Positions 9,273 through 27,275 of a stretch of 64,000 nucleotides of DNA are shown here, one piece after another. The stretch is taken from the NCBI GenBank assembly GCA_943370595.1, contig CALRRO020000007.1, forward strand, positions 38,389 through 102,388, read 5' to 3'. A model generated the notes under the pieces. That model did not search any database, was not told where the DNA came from, and saw nothing but the letters and a program-made list of their open reading frames with translations. The DNA comes from Chitinophaga pinensis (GTDB taxonomy: Bacteria; Pseudomonadota; Gammaproteobacteria; Burkholderiales; Burkholderiaceae_C). The stretch's first letter is position 1. Every line of letters starts with the position of its first letter. Made by a program: the position numbers and the translations under genes.

Positions 9273-10370
9273 TCAGGCCGTGCCGCCGTGCTCGTTGATG
9301 AAGCGGCGGTCGATGTGGTCCTTCCAGCGCCACACCCAGCCGCCCTGGGCCGACCAGCCGCCCCAACTGGCGATCGCGTGGCGCTCGCCGCAGGCCAGCA
9401 GGTTGAGCGCACGAGGCTGCGGCGCCCAGGCCTCGAGCTGGCCGCCGGCCAGGAAGCGGCGCAGGTTCAGTGCCAGCGGCGCACCGGCGCGCACGGCGTA
9501 GACGCCGCTGCGCGGGTGAACCGCATCCTGGCGCGCCGACACGTCGCCCGCCGCGAACACCTCGGCGTGCGAGGTGCTTTGCAGCGTCGGCCCGGTGGCG
9601 ACAAAGCCTTGCGCGTCGAGTGCCAGGCCGCTGGCGCGCAGCCAGGCCGGCGCGACCGCCGGCAGCGCCATCACCGCCGCATCGCAGGCCACCCGCGTGC
9701 CGCGCCCGAGCACCACGTGGGTGGCGTTGATCTCGGCGCAGACATCCTCCAGCACCGTGACCTTGCGGCGCTTCAGCGCGTCCAGCGCGCGGCGCTGCAC
9801 GGCCGGCGGGTGGCTGGGCAGCGGCGGCGAACCGCCGGTGACGAGGCTCACCCGCGAGCGGTCGCCGAGCCGGTGGTGCATGGCCAGCGCCAGCTCGACG
9901 CCGGCCGCACCGCCGCCGACCACCACCACGCACAGCGGCTTCGCCTCGGCGAGTTCCAGCATGCGGTCCCACAACTGCACGAAGCCCTCGATCGGGCGCA
10001 CGAACAGGCCGTGCTCACGCGCCCCGGCGACGGCGTCGCGGTCCTGCGTCGCGCCGACGTCGAGGCTGAGCACGTCGTAGGGCAGCGTGCGGCCGTCGGC
10101 CAGCGTGACCGTGCGGGCCGCGGCGTCGATCGCGGTGGCGCTGGCCTGCAGCACGCGCACGCAGGCACGTTCGGCCATCGGCCGCAGCGGCACGACGCAC
10201 TGCTGGCGCGTGTAGTGGCCGGCGACGACGCCCGGCACCATGCCCGAGTAGGTGAGCTCCGGCCAGGGCGTGACCAGCGTAACCTCGGCGCCGGGCAGCG
10301 CCTCGCTGGCGAACGCACGCATCACCTGCAGGTGCGCATGCCCCCCGCCGAGGAGTAGCAGCTTCTTCAT
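9273..10370 (-). CDS. FAD-dependent pyridine nucleotide-disulfide oxidoreductase (TIGR03169-like, the domain often N-terminal to SelD)
   Basis: LLLGGGHAH, YSGMVPG.VAGHY, GGGAAGVE, FAAGD, GVYAVRAG; no SelD domain. Confidence 0.85.
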   Translation of the reverse strand: MKKLLLLGGGHAHLQVMRAFASEALPGAEVTLVTPWPELTYSGMVPGVVAGHYTRQQCVVPLRPMAERACVRVLQASATAIDAAARTVTLADGRTLPYDVLSLDVGATQDRDAVAGAREHGLFVRPIEGFVQLWDRMLELAEAKPLCVVVVGGGAAGVELALAMHHRLGDRSRVSLVTGGSPPLPSHPPAVQRRALDALKRRKVTVLEDVCAEINATHVVLGRGTRVACDAAVMALPAVAPAWLRASGLALDAQGFVATGPTLQSTSHAEVFAAGDVSARQDAVHPRSGVYAVRAGAPLALNLRRFLAGGQLEAWAPQPRALNLLACGERHAIASWGGWSAQGGWVWRWKDHIDRRFINEHGGTA

Positions 10371-11107
10371 CGATCGAGCGACAGGTCGGCGACGAAGGCG
10401 AGGCTGTGGCCGCGGGTGTTGTCGGCATCCGCACCGAAGGCCACGGCCGACACCGGCGGCGCCTGCGTCGCCTCGTCGGCGAACAGGCGCAGGAAGTCGG
10501 CCGCCACGTCGCGGCGCTCGTCACGCCACCCGCCCTGCCCGTCGTCGCCCGAGCGCAGCACGAGGTAACGCACGCGCCGGCTGTAAGGGTTGGGCAGCAC
10601 GGTGCCGGCAGCGAGCTGGCGGTCCCAGACGTAGCAGACGGTGGCCGCGGGCAGTGCCTCGCCGGTCTTCGAGCGGGCCAGCCGCAGCAGTTGACGCTCG
10701 ACGAAGGGAACCTGCGACATCGGCAGGTCGAAGAAGACGCAGACCTTGACCGCGTTGTCGTCGCCCTCCTTGCGGCTGAGGTCGGACTGCTCGACGAAAC
10801 GCTCGACACGCCACGACCACGACAGCGTCAGCCCGGGTGCAGCGGCCTGCAGCGCATGCACCCGATTGCCGTAGGCGCCGTCGGACTCGATGCGCACGGC
10901 ACGGCGGCCCTCGACCGTCTGGACGGTGTAGCGCGTGGCCGGGAGCTGCTGCTGCGGCAGCCTCGCGTCGCGCCACGCCGCTGCGATGCTGCCGTCGCCC
11001 GCGACCAGCGGCTGCAGCAGCTGCGCCAGCGCAGGCAGGGGCAGCAGGGCTGCGATCGAAGCGGCGATCGCTGCGATCACCCGCATGGCACCTCGCGGCG
11101 CCGTCAT
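10367..11107 (-). CDS. DUF3047 periplasmic protein
   Basis: Signal peptide; LSWSWRV...DLS.K.GDD; CYVWD; DADNT. Confidence 0.85.
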   Translation of the reverse strand: MTAPRGAMRVIAAIAASIAALLPLPALAQLLQPLVAGDGSIAAAWRDARLPQQQLPATRYTVQTVEGRRAVRIESDGAYGNRVHALQAAAPGLTLSWSWRVERFVEQSDLSRKEGDDNAVKVCVFFDLPMSQVPFVERQLLRLARSKTGEALPAATVCYVWDRQLAAGTVLPNPYSRRVRYLVLRSGDDGQGGWRDERRDVAADFLRLFADEATQAPPVSAVAFGADADNTRGHSLAFVADLSLDR

Positions 11108-13254
11108 CCGCGCCTCCAGGCGTGGTACTTCGCAACCCACTCGAGCAGTTTCGCCGGCTGGTGGTTGCGCTTCCATTCGCCGGCCGCGTACTTGTTGGCC
11201 TCGCTCATCGTCGGGTAGGTGTGGATGGTGCCGAGGATCTTGTTCAAGCCCAGGCCGTGACGCATCGCGAGCACGTACTCGGCGAGCAGGTCGCCGGCAT
11301 GCGCGCCGACGATGGTGACGCCGAGGATGCGGTCCTTGCCCGGCACGGTGAGCACCTTCACGAAACCGTGGGCGGCGCTGTCGGCGATGGCGCGGTCGAG
11401 GTCGTCGATGCCGTAGCGCGTCACCTCGTAGGCGATGCCCTTCTCCTTCGCGTCCTGCTCGTTGAGGCCGACGCGCGCGACTTCCGGGTCGACGAAGGTC
11501 GCCCAGGGGATCACCGAGTAGTCGGCCTTGAACTTGCGGAAGGTGCCGAACAGTGCATTGACCGAGGCGTACCAGGCCTGGTGCGCGCCGACGTGGGTGA
11601 ACTGGTAGGGCCCGGCCACGTCGCCGGCGGCGAGGATGTTCGGGTACAGCGTTTCGAGGTACTCGTTGGTCTCGATGGTGCGGCCGGTGGGGATGCCGAG
11701 TTCTTCCAGCCCGAAGCCCTTCAGCCGCGCGACGCGGCCGACGGCGCACAGCAGCCGGTCGAACTCGATGCGCTGCTCGGCGCCGGCATGCTCGACGACG
11801 ATGAAGCGTCGTTCCCCGTCCCGTTCGCAGCGCAGCGCCTTGTGCCCGGTCAGCACGCGCACGCCGTCGTGTTCCAGGGCAGTCTTCGCCAGCGCAGAGA
11901 CCTCCTCGTCCTCGCGGATCATGATGCGCGGCGCCATCTCGATCTGCGTGACCTGCGAGCCCAGCCGGGCGAAGCTCTGCGCCAGTTCGCAGCCGATCGG
12001 CCCGCCGCCCAGCACCACCAGCCGCGCCGGCAGCTCGCGCAGGCCCCACAGCGTGTCGCTGGTCAGGTAGCCGACGTCCTGCAGCCCCGGCAGCGGCGGC
12101 ACGAAGGGCTCGGCGCCGGTGGCCACGACGATGCTGCGCGTCGTCAGCGTCTGCGTCGTGCCGTCGTGGCGCACGATCTCGACGGTCCAGGGGTCGAGGA
12201 TCTTCGCGCTGCCCTCGACGATGTCCACGCCCAGGCCGGTGTAGCGCTCGACCGAGTCGTGCGGCTCGATGTCGCGCACCACCTGGGCCACACGCTCCAT
12301 CACCTGCGCGAAGTCCACCGTCGCCGTGGCGCTGGCGATGCCGTACTTCGTCGACTCGCGCATCTGCTGCAGCAGCGTCGCGGTCTTGATCAGCGCCTTG
12401 CTCGGCACGCAGCCGTAGTTCAGGCAGTCGCCGCCCATCTTGTGGCGCTCGACCAGGGTCACCTTCGCCTTGACGACCGCGGCGATGTAGCTGGTCACCA
12501 GCCCGGCCGCGCCGGCGCCGATGACGACCAGGTTGCGGTCGAAGGTCTTCGGCTTGCGATGCGCCCAGCGCGCGTAGACCTGGCGCGCCTTCACCGCGTC
12601 GACGATCTTCTTGGCCACCAGCGGGAACAGCCCGAGCAGCACGAAGGAGCCGAGCAGCCCCGGCGACAGGATGCCCTGCAGCGAGTCGAGCTTCGCCAGC
12701 TGCGTGCCGGCGTTCACGTAGACCACGGTGCCGGCCAGCATGCCGAGCTGGCTGACCCAGTAGAAGGTGCGCGCCTTCATCGCCGTCAGCCCCATCAGCA
12801 GGTTGATGACGAAGAACGGGAACAGCGGCACCAGGCGCAGCGTGAACAGGTAGAAACCGCCCTCGCGCGCGATGCCGCGGTCGATGTCGGCCAGCCTGGC
12901 GCCGAAGCGCGACTTCACGCTGTCGCGCAGCACGTAGCGCGAGGCAAGGAAGGCCAGCGTCGCGCCGAGGCTCGAGGCGAAGGACACGACCACCGTGCCC
13001 ACCAGCAGCCCGAAGATCGCGCCGCCGGCCAGCGTCAGGATCACAGCACCGGGCAGCGACAGCGCGGTCACCGCCACGTAGATGGCGAAGAAGGCGGCGA
13101 TCACCAGCGCCGGGCGGGTCTCGTACAGCGCCGCCAGCTCGCCCTGGCGCTGCTTGATCGCGTCCAGGCTGAGGAAGCGCCCGAGGTCGAAGGCGAAGAA
13201 CAGCGCGATCAGCACCAGCAGCCCGAGCACGATCATCCACTGACGGCGGTTCAT
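11104..13254 (-). CDS. DedA/TVP38 membrane domain fused to class-I pyridine nucleotide-disulfide reductase
   Basis: N-terminal SLPGA..LTLAGG / LRLVPLFPF.N; GAGAAG, GGDCLNYGCVPSK, GGGPIG.E, HTYPTMSE. Confidence 0.92.
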   Translation of the reverse strand: MNRRQWMIVLGLLVLIALFFAFDLGRFLSLDAIKQRQGELAALYETRPALVIAAFFAIYVAVTALSLPGAVILTLAGGAIFGLLVGTVVVSFASSLGATLAFLASRYVLRDSVKSRFGARLADIDRGIAREGGFYLFTLRLVPLFPFFVINLLMGLTAMKARTFYWVSQLGMLAGTVVYVNAGTQLAKLDSLQGILSPGLLGSFVLLGLFPLVAKKIVDAVKARQVYARWAHRKPKTFDRNLVVIGAGAAGLVTSYIAAVVKAKVTLVERHKMGGDCLNYGCVPSKALIKTATLLQQMRESTKYGIASATATVDFAQVMERVAQVVRDIEPHDSVERYTGLGVDIVEGSAKILDPWTVEIVRHDGTTQTLTTRSIVVATGAEPFVPPLPGLQDVGYLTSDTLWGLRELPARLVVLGGGPIGCELAQSFARLGSQVTQIEMAPRIMIREDEEVSALAKTALEHDGVRVLTGHKALRCERDGERRFIVVEHAGAEQRIEFDRLLCAVGRVARLKGFGLEELGIPTGRTIETNEYLETLYPNILAAGDVAGPYQFTHVGAHQAWYASVNALFGTFRKFKADYSVIPWATFVDPEVARVGLNEQDAKEKGIAYEVTRYGIDDLDRAIADSAAHGFVKVLTVPGKDRILGVTIVGAHAGDLLAEYVLAMRHGLGLNKILGTIHTYPTMSEANKYAAGEWKRNHQPAKLLEWVAKYHAWRRG

Positions 13255-13901
13255 GGGTTTTCCTCGGTCGGTTCGGCAGGCTCTTCGAGCCGGATCAGCG
13301 TTGCGCCCGGCGGCACGTCGTGCGCATCATGCGTCACCAGCACGGCGGGCACCTGTTGCTCGCGCAGTCGCTCGAAGACGAAGCTGCGGAAGCGCTGGCG
13401 CAGCGCCATGTCCAGGCGCGAGAAGGGCTCGTCGAGCAGCAGCGCCTGCGGCCGCGCCAGCAGCGCGCGCAGCACCGACACGCGGGCGCGCTGCCCGCCC
13501 GACAGCGTGTGCGGCCAGCGTGGGCCGTAGCCGGCCAGGTCGGCGCTGGCCAGCGCCGCATCGGCCTCGGCGCGCCGCTGCGCCATCGGCCCGGCCGGCA
13601 GCGCGAAGAGCAGGTTCTCGAGCACCGTCAGGTGCGGGAACAGCAGGTCGTCCTGGAACAGGATGCCGATGCGGCGCTGCGCAGTGGGCAGCGTGGTGAC
13701 CTCGCGCCCGTCGAGGCGCACCTGCCCGCTGGCATTCAGCCCCGGCGCCAGCGTGCCGCACAGGTAGGCCAGCAGCGAGGACTTGCCCGAGCCGCTCTCG
13801 CCCATCACCACCAGCACCTCGCCCGCACCGACACGCGCCGACAGACCGTCGATCAGCGTGCGCTGCGCGGTGGCGATGCGGATGCCGTCCAGCTCGAGCA
13901 T
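13251..13901 (-). CDS. ABC transporter ATP-binding protein (YnjD-like)
   Basis: GESGSGKS, LSGGQ, LLLDEPF. Confidence 0.92.
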   Translation of the reverse strand: MLELDGIRIATAQRTLIDGLSARVGAGEVLVVMGESGSGKSSLLAYLCGTLAPGLNASGQVRLDGREVTTLPTAQRRIGILFQDDLLFPHLTVLENLLFALPAGPMAQRRAEADAALASADLAGYGPRWPHTLSGGQRARVSVLRALLARPQALLLDEPFSRLDMALRQRFRSFVFERLREQQVPAVLVTHDAHDVPPGATLIRLEEPAEPTEENP

Positions 13902-15547
13902 CAGGCGATCTCCAGCCCCAGCCGGCGCGACTGCCGCCGGCCCAGCCACCAGGCCGCGCCGAAGGCCAGGCCGGGCAGCAGCGCCTGCAGCAGCGCATAG
14001 GCGGCCAGCAGCGTGCGCTGGCCGCCGGAAGCGAGCGTCAGCGCCTCGGTGGTGACGGTGGCATGCCGGCCGGCGCCGACGAACTGCGTGCTCAGGTACT
14101 GCGCGACGCTGACCGCGAAACCGACCGCCAGCGCCGACGCCACCGGCGCCAGCAGCATCGGCCACTTGATGCGCCACAGGAAGGCAGCGCGCGAGCGGCC
14201 GAGCGCGCGCGCCGTCTGCTCGTAGCGTGCATCGAAGCCGCGGTAGGCCGGCGCCAGCGCGACCAGCGCATAGGGCGCCGTGAAGAGGCTGTGCGCCAGC
14301 CACAGGCCGGCGAGGCTGCCGTCCAGCCGCAGGTGCAACATCAGCTGATAGAGGCCCGCGACCAGCAGCACGCCGGGCACCAGCATGGTCGCGAAGACCA
14401 GCGGCGCGGCGCGGCGGTCCCAGCTGGCCGGTGTGGTCTCCATCCAGGCGACGGCCAGCAGCACGCCGGTGACCGACGACGCCAGCGCGAGGCCGGCAGT
14501 GTTCACGAGCACCGGCAGGCTGCCGGCCACCATCTGCCAGGCCTCGACCGAGACGCGCTGCGGCCACAACGACGGAAAGCTCCACACGCTGGCCACCGAC
14601 ACGAAGGCCAGCAGCGCCAGCACTGCGCCGTAGACGCCGCCGAGTGCAGCGAGCAGCGGCATCACGGCACGTGACGCGCCCGCGCCACCCGGCCGATCGC
14701 CACGCAGCTGCCGCCCGCGCAGCAGCGGCCGCAGCAGGCGCAGCGCGGCCATCGCGAGCAGCGCACCCGCCACGACCACCAGTGCGACCAGCAGCGCCGC
14801 CGCCGCACCCTGCGCATTGCTGGCCGGATCGGCATCGAGCAGCCCCACCCAGGCCAGCTGCGCCAGCGTCGGCGGCTGCGTCGGGCCGAGCACCAGGGCC
14901 ATATCGACCACGCTGGCACCATAGGCCCACACCGCCAGCAGCGGCAGCGCCAGCCGCGGCAGCAACTGCGGCCACAGCACCCGCCACCACACGCTGGCCG
15001 GCGAGTAGCCCATCGCCTGTGCGGCCTGCAACTGCAGGCGCAATTGCGCCGCCTGCGCCACCGGGCGCAGCAGCGCCGCGATGCTCCACAGCAGGAAGGG
15101 CAGCTCCTTGCAGACCAGGCCGGCGATCAGCGCCAGGCCGAGCGGGTCGTGCACGGTCGAGAGGTCCGGCGGCGACGTCCAGCCCGCCAGCGGCGCGGCC
15201 AGGCGCAGCAGCAGGCCGCTGGGCATGACCAGCAGCGCGAAGCCGACCGCGAAGGCCGCATGCGGCACCGCGAGCAACGCGCCGAGCGTGCGCTCCAGCC
15301 GCGTCCACAGCGGTGTGCCGTGCAGGTGGGTGACGATCAGCAGCGCCAGGGCGAGCGACAGCGCCGTCGATGCCGCGCCGACCCAGACCGACAGCGCGAG
15401 CGCCGGGGCCAGCGCAGGGTCGGAGACAAGGCGAACCCACGCCGACGCATCGGCCGCGCCCTGCAGCGCCAGTCCCAGCGCGGCGAGCAGCGGCAGCGCG
15501 AACAGCCCGGCCGGCCAGCACCAGGCGAGGCCGGTGCGCTGCGTCAC
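13901..15547 (-). CDS. ABC transporter permease (YnjC-like)
   Basis: Polytopic, duplicated halves; PHAAFAVGF, KELPFLL; GTG start overlaps upstream stop. Confidence 0.85.
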   Translation of the reverse strand: MTQRTGLAWCWPAGLFALPLLAALGLALQGAADASAWVRLVSDPALAPALALSVWVGAASTALSLALALLIVTHLHGTPLWTRLERTLGALLAVPHAAFAVGFALLVMPSGLLLRLAAPLAGWTSPPDLSTVHDPLGLALIAGLVCKELPFLLWSIAALLRPVAQAAQLRLQLQAAQAMGYSPASVWWRVLWPQLLPRLALPLLAVWAYGASVVDMALVLGPTQPPTLAQLAWVGLLDADPASNAQGAAAALLVALVVVAGALLAMAALRLLRPLLRGRQLRGDRPGGAGASRAVMPLLAALGGVYGAVLALLAFVSVASVWSFPSLWPQRVSVEAWQMVAGSLPVLVNTAGLALASSVTGVLLAVAWMETTPASWDRRAAPLVFATMLVPGVLLVAGLYQLMLHLRLDGSLAGLWLAHSLFTAPYALVALAPAYRGFDARYEQTARALGRSRAAFLWRIKWPMLLAPVASALAVGFAVSVAQYLSTQFVGAGRHATVTTEALTLASGGQRTLLAAYALLQALLPGLAFGAAWWLGRRQSRRLGLEIA

Positions 15548-16743
15548 TGGCCGTGGCGGCGCGCCCATTCGCGCTCGATCACCTCGACCCAGCTCGCATG
15601 CGGCTCGGGCAGCACCGGCGCGCCCTGCGTCACGGCACCGGGCGCGCTGCCCTGCGCGAACAGCGCCTTGTCGGCGGCGGCGAGCTTGTCGATGGCCAGC
15701 ACCGTCGGGTCGCCCCAGTGTCGGATGTCGGCCTTGCGCGACTGCGCCAGTGGCGACTGCAGGAAGTTGATCACCACCTGCGCGCCCTCCTTCGCCCGCG
15801 CGTTGAACGGGATGGCCAGGAAGTGCGTGTTGCCGATGGTGCCGCCAGCGTGCTGCCAGCTGACCACCGACTCGGGCAGGCGCTTCGCGGCGATCTCGTT
15901 GGCCGCCTCGTTGGGGTTGAAGGTCAGCGTGATGAAGAGTTCACCGTCGGCCAGCATCTGCCGCATCACCGCGTTGCTGGCCGGGAACTGCTTGCCCTGC
16001 CGCCACAGCAGCGGGTGCAGTGCATCCAGCGTGCGCCACAGCGGCGCGAGCAGCGCGGCGGCATCGGCCGGCGCCGGCTTGTAGAACGGCTGTCGGTCGG
16101 CCGCCGTCTCCAGCAGCACCTGCTTCAGGAAGGTGGTGCCGTGGAAGTTGGGCGGCTTCGGGTAGCTGAAGCGGCCGGGGTTCTTCTTCGCGAACTCGAT
16201 CAGCTCGGCCAGGTTCTTCGGTGGCTGCGGCACCCGCTTGCTGTCGCCGTAGAAGGTGAACTGCGCCATGCCCCAGGCCGCCTCGTAGCCCTCGACCGGC
16301 TCGGAGAAGTCGATGCGCGTGGTCGGCTTGCCGACGACGTCGATCAGCGCGAAGTTCGGCAGCGCCTCGGCGAAGGGGCCGTGCAGCAGGCCCTCGCGCT
16401 TCATCGCGAGGAAGTTCTCGCCGTTGATCCAGCCCATGTCGGCGCTGCCGTCGCTGCTGCGGCCGGCGGCCTTCTCGGCGCGCACGCGCTTGACCAGTTC
16501 GGCGGTGTCGCCGAGCTTGACGTGTTCGAGCTTGATACCGTGGCGCGTGGCCACCTCGCCGGCCACCCACTGCAGGTAGGCGTTGACCCGTTCGCTGCCG
16601 CCCCAGGCGTTGAAGTAGACCGTCTGGCCGCGCGCAGCGCGCTCGATGCGCTCCCAGGCCGCGGGGTCGGCAGCGCGCGCCGCCGGCAGCCAGGGGGCCA
16701 GCGAGGCGGCGGCAATCAGGTGGCGGCGGGACAGCAGGGTCAT
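15544..16743 (-). CDS. ABC transporter substrate-binding protein (YnjB-like), probable Tat substrate
   Basis: SRRHL signal; VYFNAWGGS, WINGENF, FNPNE, IGNTHFLAIPFN, WGDPTVL. Confidence 0.88.
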   Translation of the reverse strand: MTLLSRRHLIAAASLAPWLPAARAADPAAWERIERAARGQTVYFNAWGGSERVNAYLQWVAGEVATRHGIKLEHVKLGDTAELVKRVRAEKAAGRSSDGSADMGWINGENFLAMKREGLLHGPFAEALPNFALIDVVGKPTTRIDFSEPVEGYEAAWGMAQFTFYGDSKRVPQPPKNLAELIEFAKKNPGRFSYPKPPNFHGTTFLKQVLLETAADRQPFYKPAPADAAALLAPLWRTLDALHPLLWRQGKQFPASNAVMRQMLADGELFITLTFNPNEAANEIAAKRLPESVVSWQHAGGTIGNTHFLAIPFNARAKEGAQVVINFLQSPLAQSRKADIRHWGDPTVLAIDKLAAADKALFAQGSAPGAVTQGAPVLPEPHASWVEVIEREWARRHGQ

Positions 16744-16805: not shown

Positions 16806-17291
16806 TCAGGCGCGGCCGAGCAGCCGTTGCCGCAGTGCGGGCACCGCCCAGCGGTCCAGCGACCAGCGCCCCGGCCCCCACAGCAGCAGCGCAGCGAGCA
16901 GGCTGCCCCAGAACACATGGCCCTGCAGCGCCGGCTCGCTGATCTCGGCCAGGCTGATCACCGCGACGAGGTTGACCACCGACAGGCCGGCGGCAGCGAA
17001 GCGGCCGGCCAGCCCGAGCACGAGCAACACCGGCAGCACCAGTTCACCGGCGGTGCCGGCCACCGCCGCGACCATCGGGTCCAGCAACGGCACCTGGTAT
17101 TCGTCGGTGAACAGCGCGACCGTGGTGTCGAAGTCGCGCAGCTTGGTCAGCCCGGAGCGGAAGAACACCAGCGCCACGTAGACGCGTGCGAGCAGCTGCC
17201 CGGCCGGCTGCAGGTGCTCGAGCGCGGCGATGCTTCGTTCGCCGAAGGACCAGAGGCGGGCCAGCGGCCCGGTCGAGGTGGCAGGGTTCAT
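16806..17291 (-). CDS. DoxX family membrane protein (BufD-like)
   Basis: LLAR.Y...VFF.SG..K; ELVLPVLLVLGL.GR.AA; GPGRWSLD. Confidence 0.9.
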   Translation of the reverse strand: MNPATSTGPLARLWSFGERSIAALEHLQPAGQLLARVYVALVFFRSGLTKLRDFDTTVALFTDEYQVPLLDPMVAAVAGTAGELVLPVLLVLGLAGRFAAAGLSVVNLVAVISLAEISEPALQGHVFWGSLLAALLLWGPGRWSLDRWAVPALRQRLLGRA

Positions 17292-18097
17292 GAGCGTCGT
17301 TCAGTGAAGTGAGATGACACTCGGTCGTGCGGCGGCCGCACAGCTTTCAGCCAGCCTTGCGTGACCGCGCGGGTGAGCCAGGCGGCGAAGTCGAAGTCCG
17401 GTCCGGGGCAGGCGAGCGCCTCGGCCAGCGAGGCACCATCGAAGAGCACGCACATGAAGATCGCCTCGCCGGCGGACAGCCGGTGCACCTGCACACGCCA
17501 GCCGGCCCGGGCCACGCACACTGCCTCGCCGCGCCGCTCGGCCAGCGCCGCGCGCACCGGCGCGAACGGGTCCGGGCCGCCGGCGTGGTGCGCGGTGTAC
17601 AGGGTGGCGATCGGCCAGTCCGACTGCAGCACCGCCAGGCCGGGCATCGGTTCCAGCACGAGCGCGGCCGGGTCGGCCTCGGCCAGCAGCGCCAGCGAAG
17701 CAGCGTCGAACTCCGCGTCGGCGGCACGTTCGGCGTCGTACCTCGCCCGGTCGAGCCGCGCCGCATCGGCCAGCCAGGGCCATTCGGCGAGATCGGGTTG
17801 TGCCTCGATGAAGGCCGGCAGCGCAGCCCCCCATTCGGCGACGTCACCGCGCGCTGGCGGATCGGCCGCCCACAGGTCACGCGCCAGCCGGGCAAAGTCC
17901 GCCTCGCCGAGCATGGCGGCCACCGTCGGCGCGGCCGCCTGCAGCGCCCGCTCGGCCAGGGCGCCGGCGTTGGCGCGGTAGGCGGCGAGGCCGCGCGCGA
18001 TGCGCGGCCCGGGCCCGCGCAGGCCGGAGGCTTCGCCGCGGCGAAGCAACGCGGCCAGCAACTGCGACTGGCGCTCGGCCTCGATCGCTTCGCTCAT
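17288..18097 (-). CDS. DUF2063 (HvfC/BufC-like) MNIO partner protein
   Basis: GLAAYRAN, WG..LPAFI, DAARLD; directly downstream of DUF692. Confidence 0.85.
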   Translation of the reverse strand: MSEAIEAERQSQLLAALLRRGEASGLRGPGPRIARGLAAYRANAGALAERALQAAAPTVAAMLGEADFARLARDLWAADPPARGDVAEWGAALPAFIEAQPDLAEWPWLADAARLDRARYDAERAADAEFDAASLALLAEADPAALVLEPMPGLAVLQSDWPIATLYTAHHAGGPDPFAPVRAALAERRGEAVCVARAGWRVQVHRLSAGEAIFMCVLFDGASLAEALACPGPDFDFAAWLTRAVTQGWLKAVRPPHDRVSSHFTERRS

Positions 18098-18963
18098 GGC
18101 TTCACCGCCTCGGCGATCTGCCGGGCACTCGCCGCTTCGTCGAGCAGCACCTCCAGCGGCGGCAGCGCCGTGTCCCACTCGATCAGCGTCGGCACCGGGC
18201 CGAAGCGCTCCACCGCATGGCGGTACAGCGCCCACACCGGCTCGCCGACGCGGCTGCCATGGTCGTCGATGACGATGTCGCCGCTGTCATCGTGGCCGGC
18301 GAGGTGGATCTCGGCGACCGTTGCCGCGTCGAGCGCCTCGACAAAACGGCAGCAATCGGCCAGCGGCTCGGCCGCACCAGCGTTGAGCGCATTGACCATC
18401 AGGTTGTTCAGGTCGAGCAGCAGCCTGCAGCCGCTGCGCCGCGCCAGCTCGGCAAGGAACTGTGCCTCGCCGAGGTGGTCGTCCTCGAAGTTCAGGTAAG
18501 CGGAGAGGTTTTCCACCGCGATCGGCCGGCGCAGCCGCTCCTGCACCTGCACGACATTGCGCACCAGGATGTCGAGCGACGCCTCGGTGAAGGCCAGCGG
18601 CAGCAGGTCGCTGCCGTGCAGCACCGTACCGCCCGCGGGCAGCGGCGTACGGGCAAAGCAGGCGTGGTCGGACACCAGCGCCGGCTCGACCCACCGCACC
18701 AGGCGCTCGAGCCGGTCGAGGTGCCAGGAGTCGACGCCCGCTGCCGAGCCGAGCGCCAGCCCGACGCCGTGCAGGCTGAGCGGATAGCGCTCGCGCAGCT
18801 CGTGCAGCACGGCCAGCGCCGCGCCGCCGTCGGCAAAGAAGTTCTCCGCGTGGACCTCGACGAAGCCCAGCGACGGCGACTCCTCGATCAGCGCCGCGTA
18901 GTGCGGCTGCCGCGCGCCGATGCCGACACTGGCGGCGGGAAGCAAGGCGCGCGGCATGGACAT
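18094..18963 (-). CDS. DUF692 multinuclear non-heme iron oxidase (MNIO, BufB-like)
   Basis: EVHAENF, SLHGVGL, VSDH, VENLS, LLDLNN, EIHLAGH, IDDH, IEWD. Confidence 0.93.
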   Translation of the reverse strand: MSMPRALLPAASVGIGARQPHYAALIEESPSLGFVEVHAENFFADGGAALAVLHELRERYPLSLHGVGLALGSAAGVDSWHLDRLERLVRWVEPALVSDHACFARTPLPAGGTVLHGSDLLPLAFTEASLDILVRNVVQVQERLRRPIAVENLSAYLNFEDDHLGEAQFLAELARRSGCRLLLDLNNLMVNALNAGAAEPLADCCRFVEALDAATVAEIHLAGHDDSGDIVIDDHGSRVGEPVWALYRHAVERFGPVPTLIEWDTALPPLEVLLDEAASARQIAEAVKP

Positions 18964-19238
18964 CACTTCTTCATGCCGCCCTTGGCTTCCTCGGCGGTCA
19001 TGCCCTTCATCTCCTTGCAGGTGCCCTTGGCGACGTACTTCCACTCGTCCGGGCCGTTGTCGACCTTCGACTGGCCGGCGCACGAATGCGTGCCTGACAG
19101 GTTGGCGCAGTCGTTCTGGCCGGCCTTGGCGATGCCGTAGCACTTCTCCTTGGCCTTGTCCTGCGCGGCAACCTGGCCGACGAGGCCGAGGGCGAGCACG
19201 GAAGCGAGGGCGGACGAGACGATGAGACGCTGGTTCAT
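18963..19238 (-). CDS. DUF2282 RiPP precursor (BufA1-like)
   Basis: Signal peptide + [14 protein letters not shown]...HSCAG...W.YV.KGTC (4 Cys). Confidence 0.93.
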
Positions 19239-19350: not shown

Positions 19351-20349
19351 ATGGCCCCGACACCCCTGCGACGCGACGATCCCTGGTACCACGCCCGCCT
19401 GGCCCCGCCCAGCGGCCCGGTGCGCATCGTCATCGACACCGATGCCGCCAACGAGATCGACGACCCCTTCGCCATCGCCTGGGCGCTGAGGGCACCGCAG
19501 CGGCTGCAGGTCGCGGGGGTTTACGCGGCACCCTATTCCTTCGCGCACCGCCGCGCCGAGATGAAGGTGCAGCAGCACCGCCAGTTCGATGCGCCCGGCA
19601 TCGGCATGGAGCACAGCCTGGACGAGATCCGCGCCGTGTTCGCCGCGCTCGGTATCGCCGAGGCGGGGCGCGTGCAGCGCGGCTCGACGCGCTACCTGGC
19701 CTCGCTCGACGCGCCTGAGGCCAGCGAGGCCACGGCGCACCTGATCGCCACCGCGATGGCGACACCGCCGGACGAGCCGCTGTACGTGGTCGCGATCGGC
19801 TGCGTCACCAACATCGCCAACGCGCTGCTGATCGAGCCGGCGATCGCCGAGCGCATCGTCGTCGTCTGGACCAGCGGCTACCCCTCGCACGCGCCGCAGG
19901 TCAACGACTCGTTCAACCTCGAACAGGATCTGCTCGCCTCGCAGTGGCTGCTCGACAGCGGCGTGCCGCACGTCTACCTGCCGGGCTTCCATGTCGGGGC
20001 GCAGCTGCGACTGTCGCTGCCGGAGATGGAGCGCTGGGTGAAGGCGCGCGGGGCCATCGGCGCGCACCTGTTCGATCTCTACACCCACAACCCGCTGTGG
20101 CCGCTGCTGGGCATCGACAGCTTCGAGGCGCACTCCTGGGTCATCTGGGACATCATCAACATCGCCTGGCTGATCGAGCCGGCCTGGGTGCCCAGCAGCC
20201 TCGTGCGCACGCCGCGGCTCGGCGCCGACCGGCGCTGGATCGCCGATGCCACGCGCCATCCGATGCGCGAGGCCCATGCGGTGCAGCGCGATGCCATCTT
20301 CCGCGCCTTCTTCGAGTCCTTGCCACCATCGACGAGCGGCCCACAGTGA
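19351..20349 (+). CDS. Nucleoside hydrolase family protein
   Basis: [11 protein letters not shown] motif; FNL.QD; IWD. Confidence 0.85.
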
Positions 20350-24167: not shown

Positions 24168-25199
24168 CTATCCGCCGAGTGCGTCCAGTTCGTCGATGAC
24201 CCTGGCCACGCCTTCGGGCGACAGGTAGTGGTCGACGCGGCCGCGCACATGCGCGATCAGCGCCGCCTCGCTGCGCTCGCCCGACCAGTCCTCGCCGTCG
24301 CCACCGGCCCGCGCCTCGCGCGAGGACAGCACGCGCCACTTGGCGCACCAGGTGATCGACCACAGCCACATCGCGCTGCGCAAGGGCAGCAGGTCGTCGT
24401 GCCAGGCGCCGGCACCGTCGCAGCGCGATTGCCAGCGCGCATGGAAGGCCCGCACATCCGCCAGCGACAACTCCGCCGACGAGGCCACGTCCCAGGTCGT
24501 CGAGGTGTAGAGCGTGGCATGCGCCAGGTCCAGCGGCGGCAGGCCGTAGCGGGCCTTCTCCAGATCGACCAGCACGGCGCGTCCGCCCTGGTCGACGAGG
24601 AAGTTGCCGGGGTGCGCATCGAAGGCGATCAGGCGCCGGGGCGGCCGGCCCGGCCGCTCGCAGCGTGCGGCCAGCGCGGCCCGGCGCGCGTCGATGGCCC
24701 GGCGGCTCGCCGGGTCGATCTGCGCGGCGTCGAGGAACATGGCCTGAACCTCGATCTCGTCGCGCAGATCGGCGAGTGGGTCGGCTGCGTCGAGCAGCGG
24801 CGCACGCGCGTCGCGCTCGGGCACGGGCAGCGAGTGGATGGCGGCGAGCGCATCGGCCAGCGCATGAAGATCCTGCGGCAGCCGCACCGGCACCCCGTGG
24901 ATCTCCTCCACCAGCAGCGCGCCACGCGGCAACACGGTCGAGGGCGGCAGCATGCCGCGCAGCCGTGGCGCATGGCCGCTGGCTGACGCGCGCTCGAAAC
25001 AGGCGGCCTGGTAGGCGAGGTTGGCGGCGGCGGGCAGGTCCATCTGGCTCTGCTTCGGGATGCGTGCCAGCACCCCGGCGCCGACCAGCCGCAGGTGGGC
25101 ATGCGCGAGACCGCTGTCCGGCAGGACTTCGATCGGCGCATCGGCCCAGGGCGAGCGCAGATCGCGCAGCGCCGCGCGCAGGGCGTCGACCAGGCTCAC
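24168..25199 (-). CDS. APH/choline-kinase-like phosphotransferase
   Basis: AFDAHPGNF (Brenner-like) and VDLEK motifs; GTG start overlaps upstream stop. Confidence 0.8.
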   Translation of the reverse strand: MSLVDALRAALRDLRSPWADAPIEVLPDSGLAHAHLRLVGAGVLARIPKQSQMDLPAAANLAYQAACFERASASGHAPRLRGMLPPSTVLPRGALLVEEIHGVPVRLPQDLHALADALAAIHSLPVPERDARAPLLDAADPLADLRDEIEVQAMFLDAAQIDPASRRAIDARRAALAARCERPGRPPRRLIAFDAHPGNFLVDQGGRAVLVDLEKARYGLPPLDLAHATLYTSTTWDVASSAELSLADVRAFHARWQSRCDGAGAWHDDLLPLRSAMWLWSITWCAKWRVLSSREARAGGDGEDWSGERSEAALIAHVRGRVDHYLSPEGVARVIDELDALGG

Positions 25200-25831
25200 A
25201 GCCAGCCTCGCCCGGCCAGATGAACCAGGTCGGCCGGCTCGTCGATATCGTGCAGCGGGGGCAGCTCGTGCCAGCGAAGGCCGCCTTCGCGCAGGCGCTC
25301 GCGCGTGACCGCCATCACCTGCGCGGTGCTCCACGGCATCGCTTCGAACAAGCGAGACCAGCGCGGCGCGGCGCGGCGCAGGCCGATCAGTGCGTAGCCG
25401 CCGTCGTGCGCCGGTGCGAACACGGCGTCGTGCGTGGCCAGCGCCTCGGCCGCCGCGCGCAGCGCCGCGGCGTCGAGATCGGGCGCATCGGTGCCGATGA
25501 GCACGGCACGCTCGTTCGTCGCCAGCGCCCGCTCGAAGGCACGGTGCATGCGCGCGCCGAGATCGCCGTCGCCCTGGGGATACAGCGCCAGGCCGCCGTC
25601 CTCCGCAAGGCGGGCGAACGCCGGGTGAGACACGTCCGGCGCACCGCACAGCATCACCGGGCCGACGCTCGCGGCTCGCGCCTCGCCCACGGCGTGCATC
25701 AGCATGCGTGCCGCCAGCGCCGCGGCGCCCTCGGCACACAGCGCAGGGATCAGGCGCGTCTTCGCCAGGCCCGCCACCGGCGCCTTGGCCATGACGATCA
25801 CTGCGCAATGCGGGTCGTTCAGCGGTACCAC
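25196..25831 (-). CDS. TIGR04282-like (DUF2064, CofC-like) transferase
   Basis: MAKAP..G.AKTRL, QGDGDLG.RM, IGTDAPDL, PA.DGGY.LIG, DID.PADL. Confidence 0.9.
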   Translation of the reverse strand: MVPLNDPHCAVIVMAKAPVAGLAKTRLIPALCAEGAAALAARMLMHAVGEARAASVGPVMLCGAPDVSHPAFARLAEDGGLALYPQGDGDLGARMHRAFERALATNERAVLIGTDAPDLDAAALRAAAEALATHDAVFAPAHDGGYALIGLRRAAPRWSRLFEAMPWSTAQVMAVTRERLREGGLRWHELPPLHDIDEPADLVHLAGRGWL

Positions 25832-26499
25832 GGGGCCAGTCTATCGGCGCTCACGCCGAGCGCGTAGAGCAGCCGCAGGCGCCACATCAGAAGAATGGTG
25901 CGCCACACGCCGCGCTGCTCCCAGCGGCGGCCGGAGGTGATCACCCGTTCGTGCAGGCAGACTGGCGCGACCATCCGCTTGAGGCGGATCGACAGCTCGA
26001 TGTCTTCCATCAACGGTTGCTCGGGAAAGCCGCCGACGGCGTCGAACGCATCGCGGGTCATGAACATCGCCTGGTCACCGGTGGCGATGCCGCTCCAGCG
26101 CGAGCGCAGGTTCATCAACGTGGCCACCACGGGCAGCCAGGCCGAGCGGCCTTCGATGATCACGTCGAAGCGGCCCCAGGCCTGCGCCTGCGCGGCGAGC
26201 GCAGCGGCGACGAGCGCATCGGCCCGCTCCGGCAGGCGCGTGTCGGCATGCAGGAAAAGCAGCTGCGGCGCACTCGCCACCGCTGCACCGGCGTTCATCT
26301 GCCGCGCTCGGCCGCGCGGGCCGTCGACGATGTGGTCGGCCAGCGGTCGCGCGAGCGCCACCGTGTCGTCGCGGCTGCCGCCGTCGACGACGATGACTTC
26401 GACACCGCGCTCGCGCAGCGGCGCCAATGCACGCAGCGTCGCCTCGATGCCCGCAGCCTCGTTCAGCACCGGCACCACGATACTCAACGAGGCCGTCAC
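25819..26499 (-). CDS. TIGR04283-like family 2 glycosyltransferase
   Basis: SIVVPVLNE, VDGGSRD, GRARQMNAGA, FLHADT, GDQ, MEDIE, SGRRW. Confidence 0.92.
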   Translation of the reverse strand: MTASLSIVVPVLNEAAGIEATLRALAPLRERGVEVIVVDGGSRDDTVALARPLADHIVDGPRGRARQMNAGAAVASAPQLLFLHADTRLPERADALVAAALAAQAQAWGRFDVIIEGRSAWLPVVATLMNLRSRWSGIATGDQAMFMTRDAFDAVGGFPEQPLMEDIELSIRLKRMVAPVCLHERVITSGRRWEQRGVWRTILLMWRLRLLYALGVSADRLAPWYR

Positions 26500-27275
26500 G
26501 CCGGCCTCGCGATGCGCCGCTGCGACAGCGCGTACAGGCCGATCGCCACCGCCAGCGCAGCGCACCAGGCGGCGGCATAGGCGGCCGCCGTCGGCCACGC
26601 GGCGAGCCCGAGGTAGAGGACCACGAAGAAGGCACCGAAACCCGACAGCCCGCGCACGAAGCCGCGCAGCAGCGCCACCGTGGCGGCGCTGCCGTAGCGC
26701 GGCAGCGTGAAGCAGGGCAGCACGTTGCCGGTGATGGGCACGGCCAGCAGCAGGCCGCTGAACCAGGCCGGTGCCACGCCGGCGCTGCGGATGATCAGCC
26801 AGGCCACCGCCACTGCGGCGATGACGCGGCAGGCCAGTTCCACCTGCGGGATCGCCACCGCGCCGGGCACGACCGGCAGGCGCGGCATCAGCCGGCCGCC
26901 GATGGCGAGCACGGCCAGCGCCACCACGCAGGCCAGCACGGGCGGCAGGTGCAGCAGCGGCAGCAGCGAGCCCAGCCCGAAGAAGGCGATGTTGGCCATC
27001 GCGAGGGCCACCCACCACGGCCAACGCATCGAACTCCAGGCGAACACGACCAGGTGCGCGACGGTGGCTGGAAGGCAGACCAGCGTGGCCAGCGCGATGT
27101 CGCGCACGCTCCCGGTCGCGGTCTGCAGCAGCACGAAGCCCATGATCGGCCCGGCGATCATCGGCAGGCCGGCCAGCGTGCCGCCCACCGCATGGCCGAA
27201 GCGCCGTGCCGCCAGCGAGGAGAGCAGCGCCGACGCGGCGACCAGCAGCAGCTTCAGCAGCAGCGTCGGCAGCAT
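26496..27275 (-). CDS. Uncharacterised polytopic membrane protein
   Basis: About 8 hydrophobic segments, internally repeated G...G.L.A.P pattern. Confidence 0.75.
   Translation of the reverse strand: MLPTLLLKLLLVAASALLSSLAARRFGHAVGGTLAGLPMIAGPIMGFVLLQTATGSVRDIALATLVCLPATVAHLVVFAWSSMRWPWWVALAMANIAFFGLGSLLPLLHLPPVLACVVALAVLAIGGRLMPRLPVVPGAVAIPQVELACRVIAAVAVAWLIIRSAGVAPAWFSGLLLAVPITGNVLPCFTLPRYGSAATVALLRGFVRGLSGFGAFFVVLYLGLAAWPTAAAYAAAWCAALAVAIGLYALSQRRIARPA

Follow-up and report, generated by a model that had tools for sequence, protein, structure and literature searches.

A candidate ArsS-less variant of the TIGR04282/TIGR04283 'arsenosugar-type' gene cluster, associated with a kinase, a nucleoside hydrolase and a YnjBCD importer

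The analysed window is a stretch of 64,000 nucleotides from a Burkholderiales genome. At positions 24168-27275 it contains four co-directional genes on the minus strand, coding, in order of transcription, for a membrane protein, a glycosyltransferase of family GT2, a DUF2064 protein with a CofC/MobA-like nucleotidyltransferase fold, and a small-molecule kinase with an aminoglycoside phosphotransferase (APH)/choline-kinase fold. The GT2 and DUF2064 genes, members of TIGR04283 and TIGR04282 respectively, are indicated below as "the pair"; together with the kinase gene they form "the trio". In this DNA, whose G+C content is about 70%, real genes were told from spurious open reading frames (ORFs) by a frame analysis of third-position GC (GC3). 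Four genes with overlapping ends had been described in the initial annotation, made from the sequence alone, and frame analysis, junctions and family scores all agree with that description. The membrane protein and GT2 genes share 4 nt (GTGA), as do the DUF2064 and kinase genes, while between GT2 and DUF2064 the overlap is 13 nt, provided that the latter starts at the GTG at 25831; the alternative starts, at 25801 or 25792, would leave a gap of 17-26 nt instead. Coordinates of these and of the other genes discussed are collected in Table 1.

Both members of the pair, single-copy in the window's genome, score above the cut-off of their families: 283.3 bits for GT2 with TIGR04283 (cut-off 182) and 203.3 bits for the DUF2064 protein with TIGR04282 (cut-off 134), the latter also matching PF09837 (114 bits) and, more weakly, the CofC and NTP_transf_3 families. 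The AlphaFold 2 model of the GT2 protein (pLDDT 95) has a GT-A fold, whose nearest neighbours are GT2 enzymes using nucleoside diphosphate (NDP)-sugars (6p61, WrtF, TarS/TarP; Z 22.7-20); residues D39, H84-x-D86, D142 and E165-D166 are invariant. On this model, the protein is confidently predicted to be a Leloir-type GT-A enzyme, and would therefore need an NDP-sugar as donor. When the fold search was inspected for lipid as opposed to soluble acceptors, the ranking was flat, consisting of GT2 enzymes that use NDP-sugars and whose acceptors are mixed. Among solved structures, the DUF2064 protein is nearest to 3cgx (E 3.6e-17) and then to the 3-phospho-D-glycerate guanylyltransferase 7p97 (E 2e-4).

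The kinase matches PF01636 with 49 bits (cut-off 23.2), and D194-x-H-P-G-N199, D212-L-E214 and K49 are invariant in an alignment of 40 sequences: all catalytic motifs are retained. Its model (pLDDT 85.6) shows the bilobal APH/choline-kinase fold, the best match being 3dxq (Z 21.3, root-mean-square deviation 3.5, 277 residues aligned). Fold searches, including Foldseek, confirmed the fold, with a flat ranking by which substrate classes are not separable: choline/ethanolamine-like, homoserine, aminopropanol and N-acetylhexosamine kinases, down to APH(2''), are tied between Z 21.3 and 18. The N-acetylhexosamine 1-kinase NahK (Z 19.8, 304 residues aligned) is thus tied with non-sugar kinases, LicA scores Z 18.0, and no match to MtnK stood out. 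Sequence searches of the PDB, with the single sequence or with a 40-sequence profile, gave no significant match. The kinase family is small: at E <= 0.001, a search of 1.84 billion proteins gave 502 representatives.

The association of the kinase with the pair was evaluated in 40 relatives, 13 of which belong to the window's genus (Piscinibacter-labelled). TIGR04282 and the kinase are found in the same 10 out of 13 genus genomes, the remaining three lacking both; in all 10 genomes having either, the two genes are adjacent, about 30 bp apart. Among kinase homologs with 64-93% identity there are DUF2064-kinase fusions of about 565-587 aa (P0116, P0120, P0123, P0137), which span at least three separate 50%-identity clusters. 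In five genomes where the pair is distant from the kinase (three Roseovarius and two Alcaligenaceae), TIGR04282 is found elsewhere in all five, and ArsS in none. Co-conservation of the kinase with the pair, whose absence the initial annotation had named as the result that would refute its proposal, is thus supported by adjacency, by fusions and by the non-adjacent genomes alike, and the GT2-DUF2064-kinase trio is a real unit. The order of reactions suggested there, from kinase to nucleotidyl transfer to glycosyl transfer, also fits the gene order and the fusions.

A kinase unrelated to the pair, either a resistance or a housekeeping enzyme of the APH type that happens to be its neighbour, with no single pathway involved, is on these data very improbable. 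The Pfam family it belongs to is indeed that of aminoglycoside phosphotransferases, and distant members of the kinase family occur in other contexts, beside MoCF_biosynth genes. Yet the adjacency in the genus, the fusions in several clusters and the co-occurrence even without adjacency are all against chance, and the linkage survives several gene orders and two proteobacterial classes: this explanation may be regarded as largely refuted.

A wider picture is given by a scan for the kinase subfamily, taking one genome per species: 80 loci were collected, with kinases 52-79% identical, and were then screened by tblastn with the window proteins. Many genera of Burkholderiales are represented (Piscinibacter, Rubrivivax, Aquincola, Rhizobacter, Variovorax, Hydrogenophaga, Rhodoferax, Aquabacterium, Pusillimonas), as well as Alphaproteobacteria, Roseovarius for example. 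In 41 of the 80 at least 6 kb are available on both sides: the pair is present in 25, the transporter genes ynjB/ynjC in 27, both in 14 and neither in 3, while ArsS is found in none of the 41. In many Burkholderiales, the genes form a single co-directional run, GT2, DUF2064, YnjB, YnjC, YnjD and kinase, with a nucleoside hydrolase (NH) gene in convergent orientation.

The membrane protein, the fourth gene of the run, had been included in the pathway by the initial annotation, but the comparison shows that it lies outside the unit. It is a multi-pass protein, separated by a 9-nt gap from the preceding oxoprolinase gene; no Pfam or NCBIfam family matched it, and a protein-atlas search gave only clusters of hypothetical proteins, with DUF3147 assigned to 20% of the members of one cluster. 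All 13 genus genomes have its gene, even the three without the trio (G001, G005, G013); of the 80 kinase loci, seven carry it, all from close relatives labelled Piscinibacter, and the non-Piscinibacter loci lack it. At two trio-less loci (L021, L022) it directly abuts the gene for an Mrr-like protein, which in the window follows the kinase and is itself a backbone gene, found also in the trio-less G005 and G013: the trio therefore corresponds to an exact three-gene insertion or deletion between backbone genes.

TIGR04282 and TIGR04283 usually accompany another system. ArsS is known to adenosylate DMAs(III), which gives the nucleoside DDMAA (PMC13598754 and PMC12159101, citing Cheng et al. 2021). 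The absence of ArsS and of ArsM from the window, already remarked in the initial annotation, extends to the whole genome, which is 100% complete in 49 contigs: the best genome-wide scores are 22.5 bits for ArsS (TIGR04167, cut-off 300) and 81.5 bits for ArsM (NF008823, cut-off 263). SelD is encoded on another contig of the same genome. Within the genus, 9 of the 10 kinase-type genomes gave no ArsS; outside it, all nine genomes with TIGR04282 have ArsS, mostly 1-5 kb away, and the kinase was not found in any of them at a threshold of E <= 1e-10. One genus genome, G010, assembled in 570 contigs with 5% contamination, carries a kinase-type cluster and, on different contigs, ArsS-type genes (the contigs involved in all are C287, C1, C60 and C275), with three TIGR04282, two ArsS and three DedA-reductase copies; this may be either a real coexistence or a mixed bin.

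Frequencies in the order were estimated from an evenly drawn sample of 301 genomes. TIGR04282 is present in 120 of them and ArsS in 106, all within the 120, confirming that the pair normally accompanies ArsS, as stated in the initial annotation; an unpublished genome, G054, contributes one count to each of these two figures. The kinase was found in only one of the 301 genomes, the window's own, in a search which scored up to 6 first-look candidates per genome and could therefore miss a few. The ArsS-less kinase variant is rare.

A maximum-likelihood tree of the concatenated GT2 and DUF2064 proteins (63 rows) shows kinase-type pairs nested among ArsS-type pairs, with at least three changes needed for the kinase label. 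Such nesting indicates that the pair is the same in the ArsS and kinase contexts, and that it has changed partners on more than one occasion. A further context is found in 15 alphaproteobacterial loci, where a conserved, unnamed radical SAM ORF of about 345 aa, featuring a CxxxCxxC motif and without NCBIfam matches, ends just upstream of the kinase (L072, reported in Table 1, along with L057, L066, L074, L081, L085, L087, L088, L090, L091, L105, L106, L115, L117 and L118). NH is present in 41 kinase loci and the unnamed radical SAM in 15, and no locus has both. A search of the window's genome, and of three other Burkholderiales kinase-type genomes, did not find the Roseovarius-type radical SAM; a hidden radical SAM was also looked for in the window and in the Burkholderiales loci, where the only CxxxCxxC matches looked like out-of-frame ORFs of GC-rich DNA. 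The pair thus has at least three sets of partners: ArsS; the unnamed radical SAM with kinase and YnjBCD; and, as in the window, NH with kinase and YnjBCD.

Two MAG contigs labelled Ilumatobacter (Actinomycetota; L045, L012) carry the trio and NH, 57-73% identical to the window genes. In the tree they fall in a clade of ten rows, with Piscinibacter rows, sister to the uncultured betaproteobacterium L075; their nesting within a Piscinibacter-containing clade suggests mis-binning or a recent transfer.

The NH gene lies in the window on the opposite strand, 4 kb from the trio. The protein matches PF01156, the family of inosine-uridine (IU)-type hydrolases, with 55.8 bits (cut-off 34.2), and carries an N-terminal aspartate cluster, D-T-D...D-D, near residues 29-38; it is far below the equivalog cut-offs of RihC and UriH, and has no signal peptide. 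Its ortholog is present in the same 10 out of 13 genus genomes as the kinase and TIGR04282, where its distance from the kinase is 1-16 kb; no such ortholog turned up in the remaining 30 of the 40 relatives. Among the 80 kinase loci, NH adjoins the kinase in 41, and in three distant loci reached through kinase homologs it stands directly beside the trio. One genus genome, G011 (77% complete, in 3 contigs), shows both DUF3047 and NH as two overlapping pieces each (C1:2651122-2651707 and 2659130-2660055), from frameshifts or sequencing errors.

The transporter follows a similar distribution. YnjB, the binding protein of this ABC importer, recognized by NF008633 with 504 bits (cut-off 203), is encoded next to its permease and ATPase genes, with overlapping ends; its distribution in the genus coincides with that of the kinase (the same 10 out of 13 genomes), and all nine ArsS-type genomes are without it. 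In many relatives YnjBCD lies between DUF2064 and the kinase, in the same direction.

The hydrolase, which the initial annotation had not connected with this cluster, and the importer point to the salvage of a riboside, rather than to the phospho-alcohol route suggested by the initial annotation, where, by analogy with LicA-LicC-LicD or with CofC, a non-sugar alcohol or acid would be phosphorylated, activated as NDP derivative and linked through a phosphodiester to a lipid or sugar. Such a route is rather unlikely, even if the best structural matches of the kinase include choline/ethanolamine-like, homoserine and aminopropanol kinases, as well as LicA at the lower end, and if the DUF2064 protein is CofC-like, its nearest characterised solved relative activating 3-phosphoglycerate. 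No LicD-type or CDP-alcohol phosphotransferase is present in the cluster, the third enzyme being instead a GT-A glycosyltransferase, nearest to users of NDP-sugars; the co-conserved NH would be left without a role; and ArsS, on which the sister clusters rely, yields a ribonucleoside. The analogy with LicA-LicC-LicD is, accordingly, a loose one. The two systems share an APH/choline-kinase-fold kinase, followed by a nucleotidyltransferase-fold enzyme and by a transferase. They differ in the last of these, here a Leloir-type GT2, and in the co-conservation of NH and importer; no window gene scanned matched the LicD family, the Pfam matches of the transferase are to GT2 families only, and the middle enzyme is assigned by Pfam to DUF2064/NTP_transf_3/CofC, not to the LicC type. 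With CofC/FbiD of the F420 pathway and with 7p97, the DUF2064 protein has the fold in common; its sequence similarity to them is weak (49.9 bits with TIGR03552, below the CofC equivalog cut-off of 105), and the context of an F420 pathway is absent.

In the initial annotation, the DUF3047, DedA-reductase and Ynj genes, about 11 kb away, had been proposed as the rest of a split cluster. This was borne out by the comparison with ArsS-type loci and by YnjBCD, which many relatives have inside the operon. In five other families, the ArsS-type loci contain, in this order, a TIGR03169-type oxidoreductase, DUF3047, DUF2064, GT2, in some cases DUF547, a reductase with a DedA/VTT domain, and ArsS, with rhodanese and ArsR-type genes nearby; no kinase, hydrolase, phosphorylase, NH or YnjBCD was found among the genes scanned. 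In L015-L019 the pair has, on its sides, homologs of the window's DedA-reductase, DUF3047 and TIGR03169 genes, with identities of 30-71%. Identity is 64-71% between the DedA-reductase and its counterpart adjoining the pair in the ArsS-type loci L015 and L017; the TIGR03169 oxidoreductase is 40-43% identical to the neighbour of DUF3047 in ArsS-type loci; and DUF3047 directly adjoins TIGR04282 in six ArsS-type genomes. These genes lie 11-17 kb from the pair in the window, and are contiguous with kinase, YnjBCD and pair in L102 (Variovorax), L104 (Pusillimonas) and L109 (Hydrogenophaga).

The three trio-less genus genomes retain the TIGR03169 oxidoreductase, and nowhere in them was a full-length DedA-reductase or YnjB found. 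In two of them (G001, G013) the histidine kinase gene which separates the two halves of the cluster is kept, while both halves are gone: this requires at least two separate deletions, and so argues for a functional coupling of the halves. The module in the window, as interpreted here, comprises TIGR03169, DUF3047, DedA-reductase, YnjBCD, NH and trio, split over about 17 kb. DUF3047 was also considered as a marker for the module, and rejected: it has 2-4 paralogs per genome, and is present also in genomes without the pair.

Table 1. Position of the genes discussed, in the window unless a locus is indicated, with the basis of each assignment.
Feature	Position	Strand	Basis or remark
Membrane protein, 259 aa	26496-27275	-	GC3
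GT2, TIGR04283, 226 aa	25819-26499	-	GC3 and profile score
DUF2064/TIGR04282, CofC/MobA-like nucleotidyltransferase-fold protein, 211 aa	25196-25831	-	GC3 and profile score
APH/choline-kinase-fold small-molecule kinase, 343 aa	24168-25199	-	GC3 and PF01636
Mrr_cat restriction-endonuclease-like domain protein, 2-3 N-terminal transmembrane helices	23550-24134	-	33 nt after kinase
IU-type nucleoside hydrolase (NH)	19351-20349	+	PF01156
Bufferin-type genes (DoxX, MbnB/DUF692, small ORFs)	16806-19238	-	between ynjB and NH
YnjB	15544-16743	-	NF008633
YnjC permease	13901-15547	-	window protein scan
YnjD ATPase	13251-13901	-	window protein scan
DedA/VTT membrane domain fused to FAD disulfide reductase	11104-13254	-	Pfam VTT_dom, Pyr_redox_2, Pyr_redox_dim
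DUF3047 protein	10367-11086	-	PF11249, 182 bits
TIGR03169 'Nterm_to_SelD' pyridine nucleotide-disulfide oxidoreductase	9273-10370	-	369 bits, cut-off 310
Unnamed radical SAM	L072:8877-9911	+	CxxxCxxC motif

Taken together, the data favour, with a rough probability of 0.55, the interpretation of the window's module as a rare ArsS-less variant of the TIGR04282/TIGR04283 'arsenosugar-type' cluster, in which a salvage front end, made of importer, hydrolase and kinase, replaces ArsS. The compound imported by YnjBCD would contain ribose, and could be a nucleoside or riboside modified at 5' with an arsenic, selenium or sulfur group; the cytoplasmic NH would cleave its glycosidic bond. The freed sugar would be phosphorylated by the APH-fold kinase, probably at C1, as MtnK, NahK and AmgK do; the DUF2064 protein would then join the sugar phosphate to a nucleoside monophosphate, from a nucleoside triphosphate, giving an NDP-sugar; and the inverting GT2 would transfer the sugar to an acceptor, producing a beta-riboside. 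The target of the reductases and DUF3047 may be the heteroatom group or the acceptor. GT2 enzymes being inverting, the anomeric configuration would change from alpha, in the linkage of the NDP-ribose derivative, to beta in the riboside, and arsenosugars have this same beta configuration. The front end would, in this scheme, stand in for the de novo adenosylation by ArsS. The substituent at position 5 could be arsenic, selenium, sulfur or none, selenium being kept possible by the TIGR03169 oxidoreductase, by the rhodaneses of the sister loci and by SelD.

A more specific form of this interpretation may be advanced only tentatively, and is somewhat doubtful: a putative route by which ribosides or nucleosides with a 5' modification, for example one bearing arsenic, selenium or sulfur, would be salvaged from the environment, where algae or ArsS-type bacteria produce them. 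YnjBCD would be the importer, NH and kinase would supply the missing 'adenine removal' and sugar-activation enzymes, DUF2064 would be a new ribose-phosphate nucleotidyltransferase of CofC fold, forming a hitherto unknown NDP-(5-substituted)-ribose, and GT2 would build the beta-riboside.

Since ArsM and ArsS are below cut-off, the window's genome cannot make DMAs(III) or DDMAA, which would also suit a role in catabolism or detoxification: YnjBCD, NH and kinase would degrade an environmental riboside, for example an arsenosugar, while the pair and the redox genes treat its heteroatom part. Importer, hydrolase and kinase are indeed a classic salvage or catabolic front end, and the hosts are freshwater and marine bacteria, as indicated by the names of the records. 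The fusion of a nucleotidyltransferase-fold protein to the kinase and the presence of a glycosyltransferase argue, on the other hand, for the building of a glycoside, and the ArsS system, where the same pair operates, is a biosynthetic one: a degradative role is therefore considered unlikely.

Several observations weigh against the ArsS-less salvage variant as well. The substrate and every one of the chemical steps are inferred. The fold ranking of the kinase, tied with non-sugar kinases, is not sugar-specific, and the characterised relatives of DUF2064, CofC and the 3-phosphoglycerate guanylyltransferase, use phospho-acids, not sugar phosphates. The ArsS-type loci have, among the genes scanned, no hydrolase, kinase or phosphorylase of their own, which leaves the source of the sugar phosphate unexplained there. 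In the window, NH stands apart from the trio, on the opposite strand, and the parts of the split module may not be co-expressed. YnjB is found without the pair in G017 and G021, from two genera, and in the E. coli control. Finally, apart from the window's genome, the order sample includes 119 genomes with TIGR04282, and 13 of them lack both ArsS and kinase; some of the 13 keep DedA-reductase, DUF547, GT2 and DUF2064, others DUF2064 alone.

Among the closest known systems is the ArsS/ArsM one, which shares TIGR04283, TIGR04282 and the same DedA-reductase, DUF3047 and TIGR03169 accessories. The window features kinase, NH and YnjBCD in place of ArsS and ArsM, and a cluster which is split; in the ArsS/ArsM system too, the functions of the pair are known by annotation only. 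Methionine salvage offers a precedent for the front end: a methylthioadenosine nucleosidase (MtnN) is followed by the methylthioribose 1-kinase MtnK, a member of the APH family. Both this route and the first two steps proposed here begin with the hydrolytic release of a 5-modified ribose, which is then the substrate of an APH-fold kinase; the window's module is, however, not a member of this system: its NH is of the IU type, not of the Pfs type, and the product would go to a nucleotidyltransferase and a glycosyltransferase, not to methionine. Sugar salvage by an anomeric kinase and a nucleotidyltransferase is known from AmgK-MurU, from NahK with GlmU-type enzymes, and from the bifunctional FKP. 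These have in common with the trio a kinase step followed by NDP-sugar formation, and FKP resembles the fusions described above, where the nucleotidyltransferase part is N-terminal and the kinase part C-terminal; DUF2064, on the other hand, is CofC/MobA-like, and does not belong to the classical sugar-1-phosphate nucleotidylyltransferase family.

In the arsenosugar pathway, only ArsS, the first committed step, has an assigned enzyme; for the subsequent steps, adenine removal by an 'adenosyl nucleosidase' and formation of the riboside by glycosidation, there are only proposals (PMC10456119). The variant described here gives testable candidates for these steps, NH, kinase, nucleotidyltransferase-fold protein and glycosyltransferase, within one co-evolving unit. 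A single pathway would also link several otherwise separate proteins: the orphan E. coli-type YnjBCD, the DedA-fused reductases, DUF3047 and the SelD-associated oxidoreductase family. Should the salvage route prove true, it would provide the first complete enzymology for the 'arsenosugar' back end, and a substrate for YnjBCD. As the pair has at least three partner sets, the name 'arsenosugar biosynthesis glycosyltransferase' may be too narrow. A literature search found no paper on DUF2064, with TIGR accessions mentioned only in passing, and none describing the ArsS-less kinase variant; a search of titles and abstracts found none on the function of ynjB/C/D or DUF3047.

Some minor observations concern the neighbours and relatives of these genes. 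Bufferin-type genes, which in the window lie between ynjB and NH, are found beside YnjB also in L040, L041, L109 and L082, and accompany one ArsS-type locus, L017. A fourth context for the TIGR04282 family is given by lone DUF2064 genes, without an adjacent GT2, in genomes lacking both ArsS and kinase: examples are L119 and L120, from genus g59, where six such genomes were counted, and L123. Members of the kinase family at a greater distance (160-250 bits; L034, L035, L037) follow a MoCF_biosynth gene (PF00994) rather than the pair; in one of these loci (L035:7438-10328) the kinase-family gene is followed by a radical SAM gene of the PA0069 family (NF033668, 520 bits).

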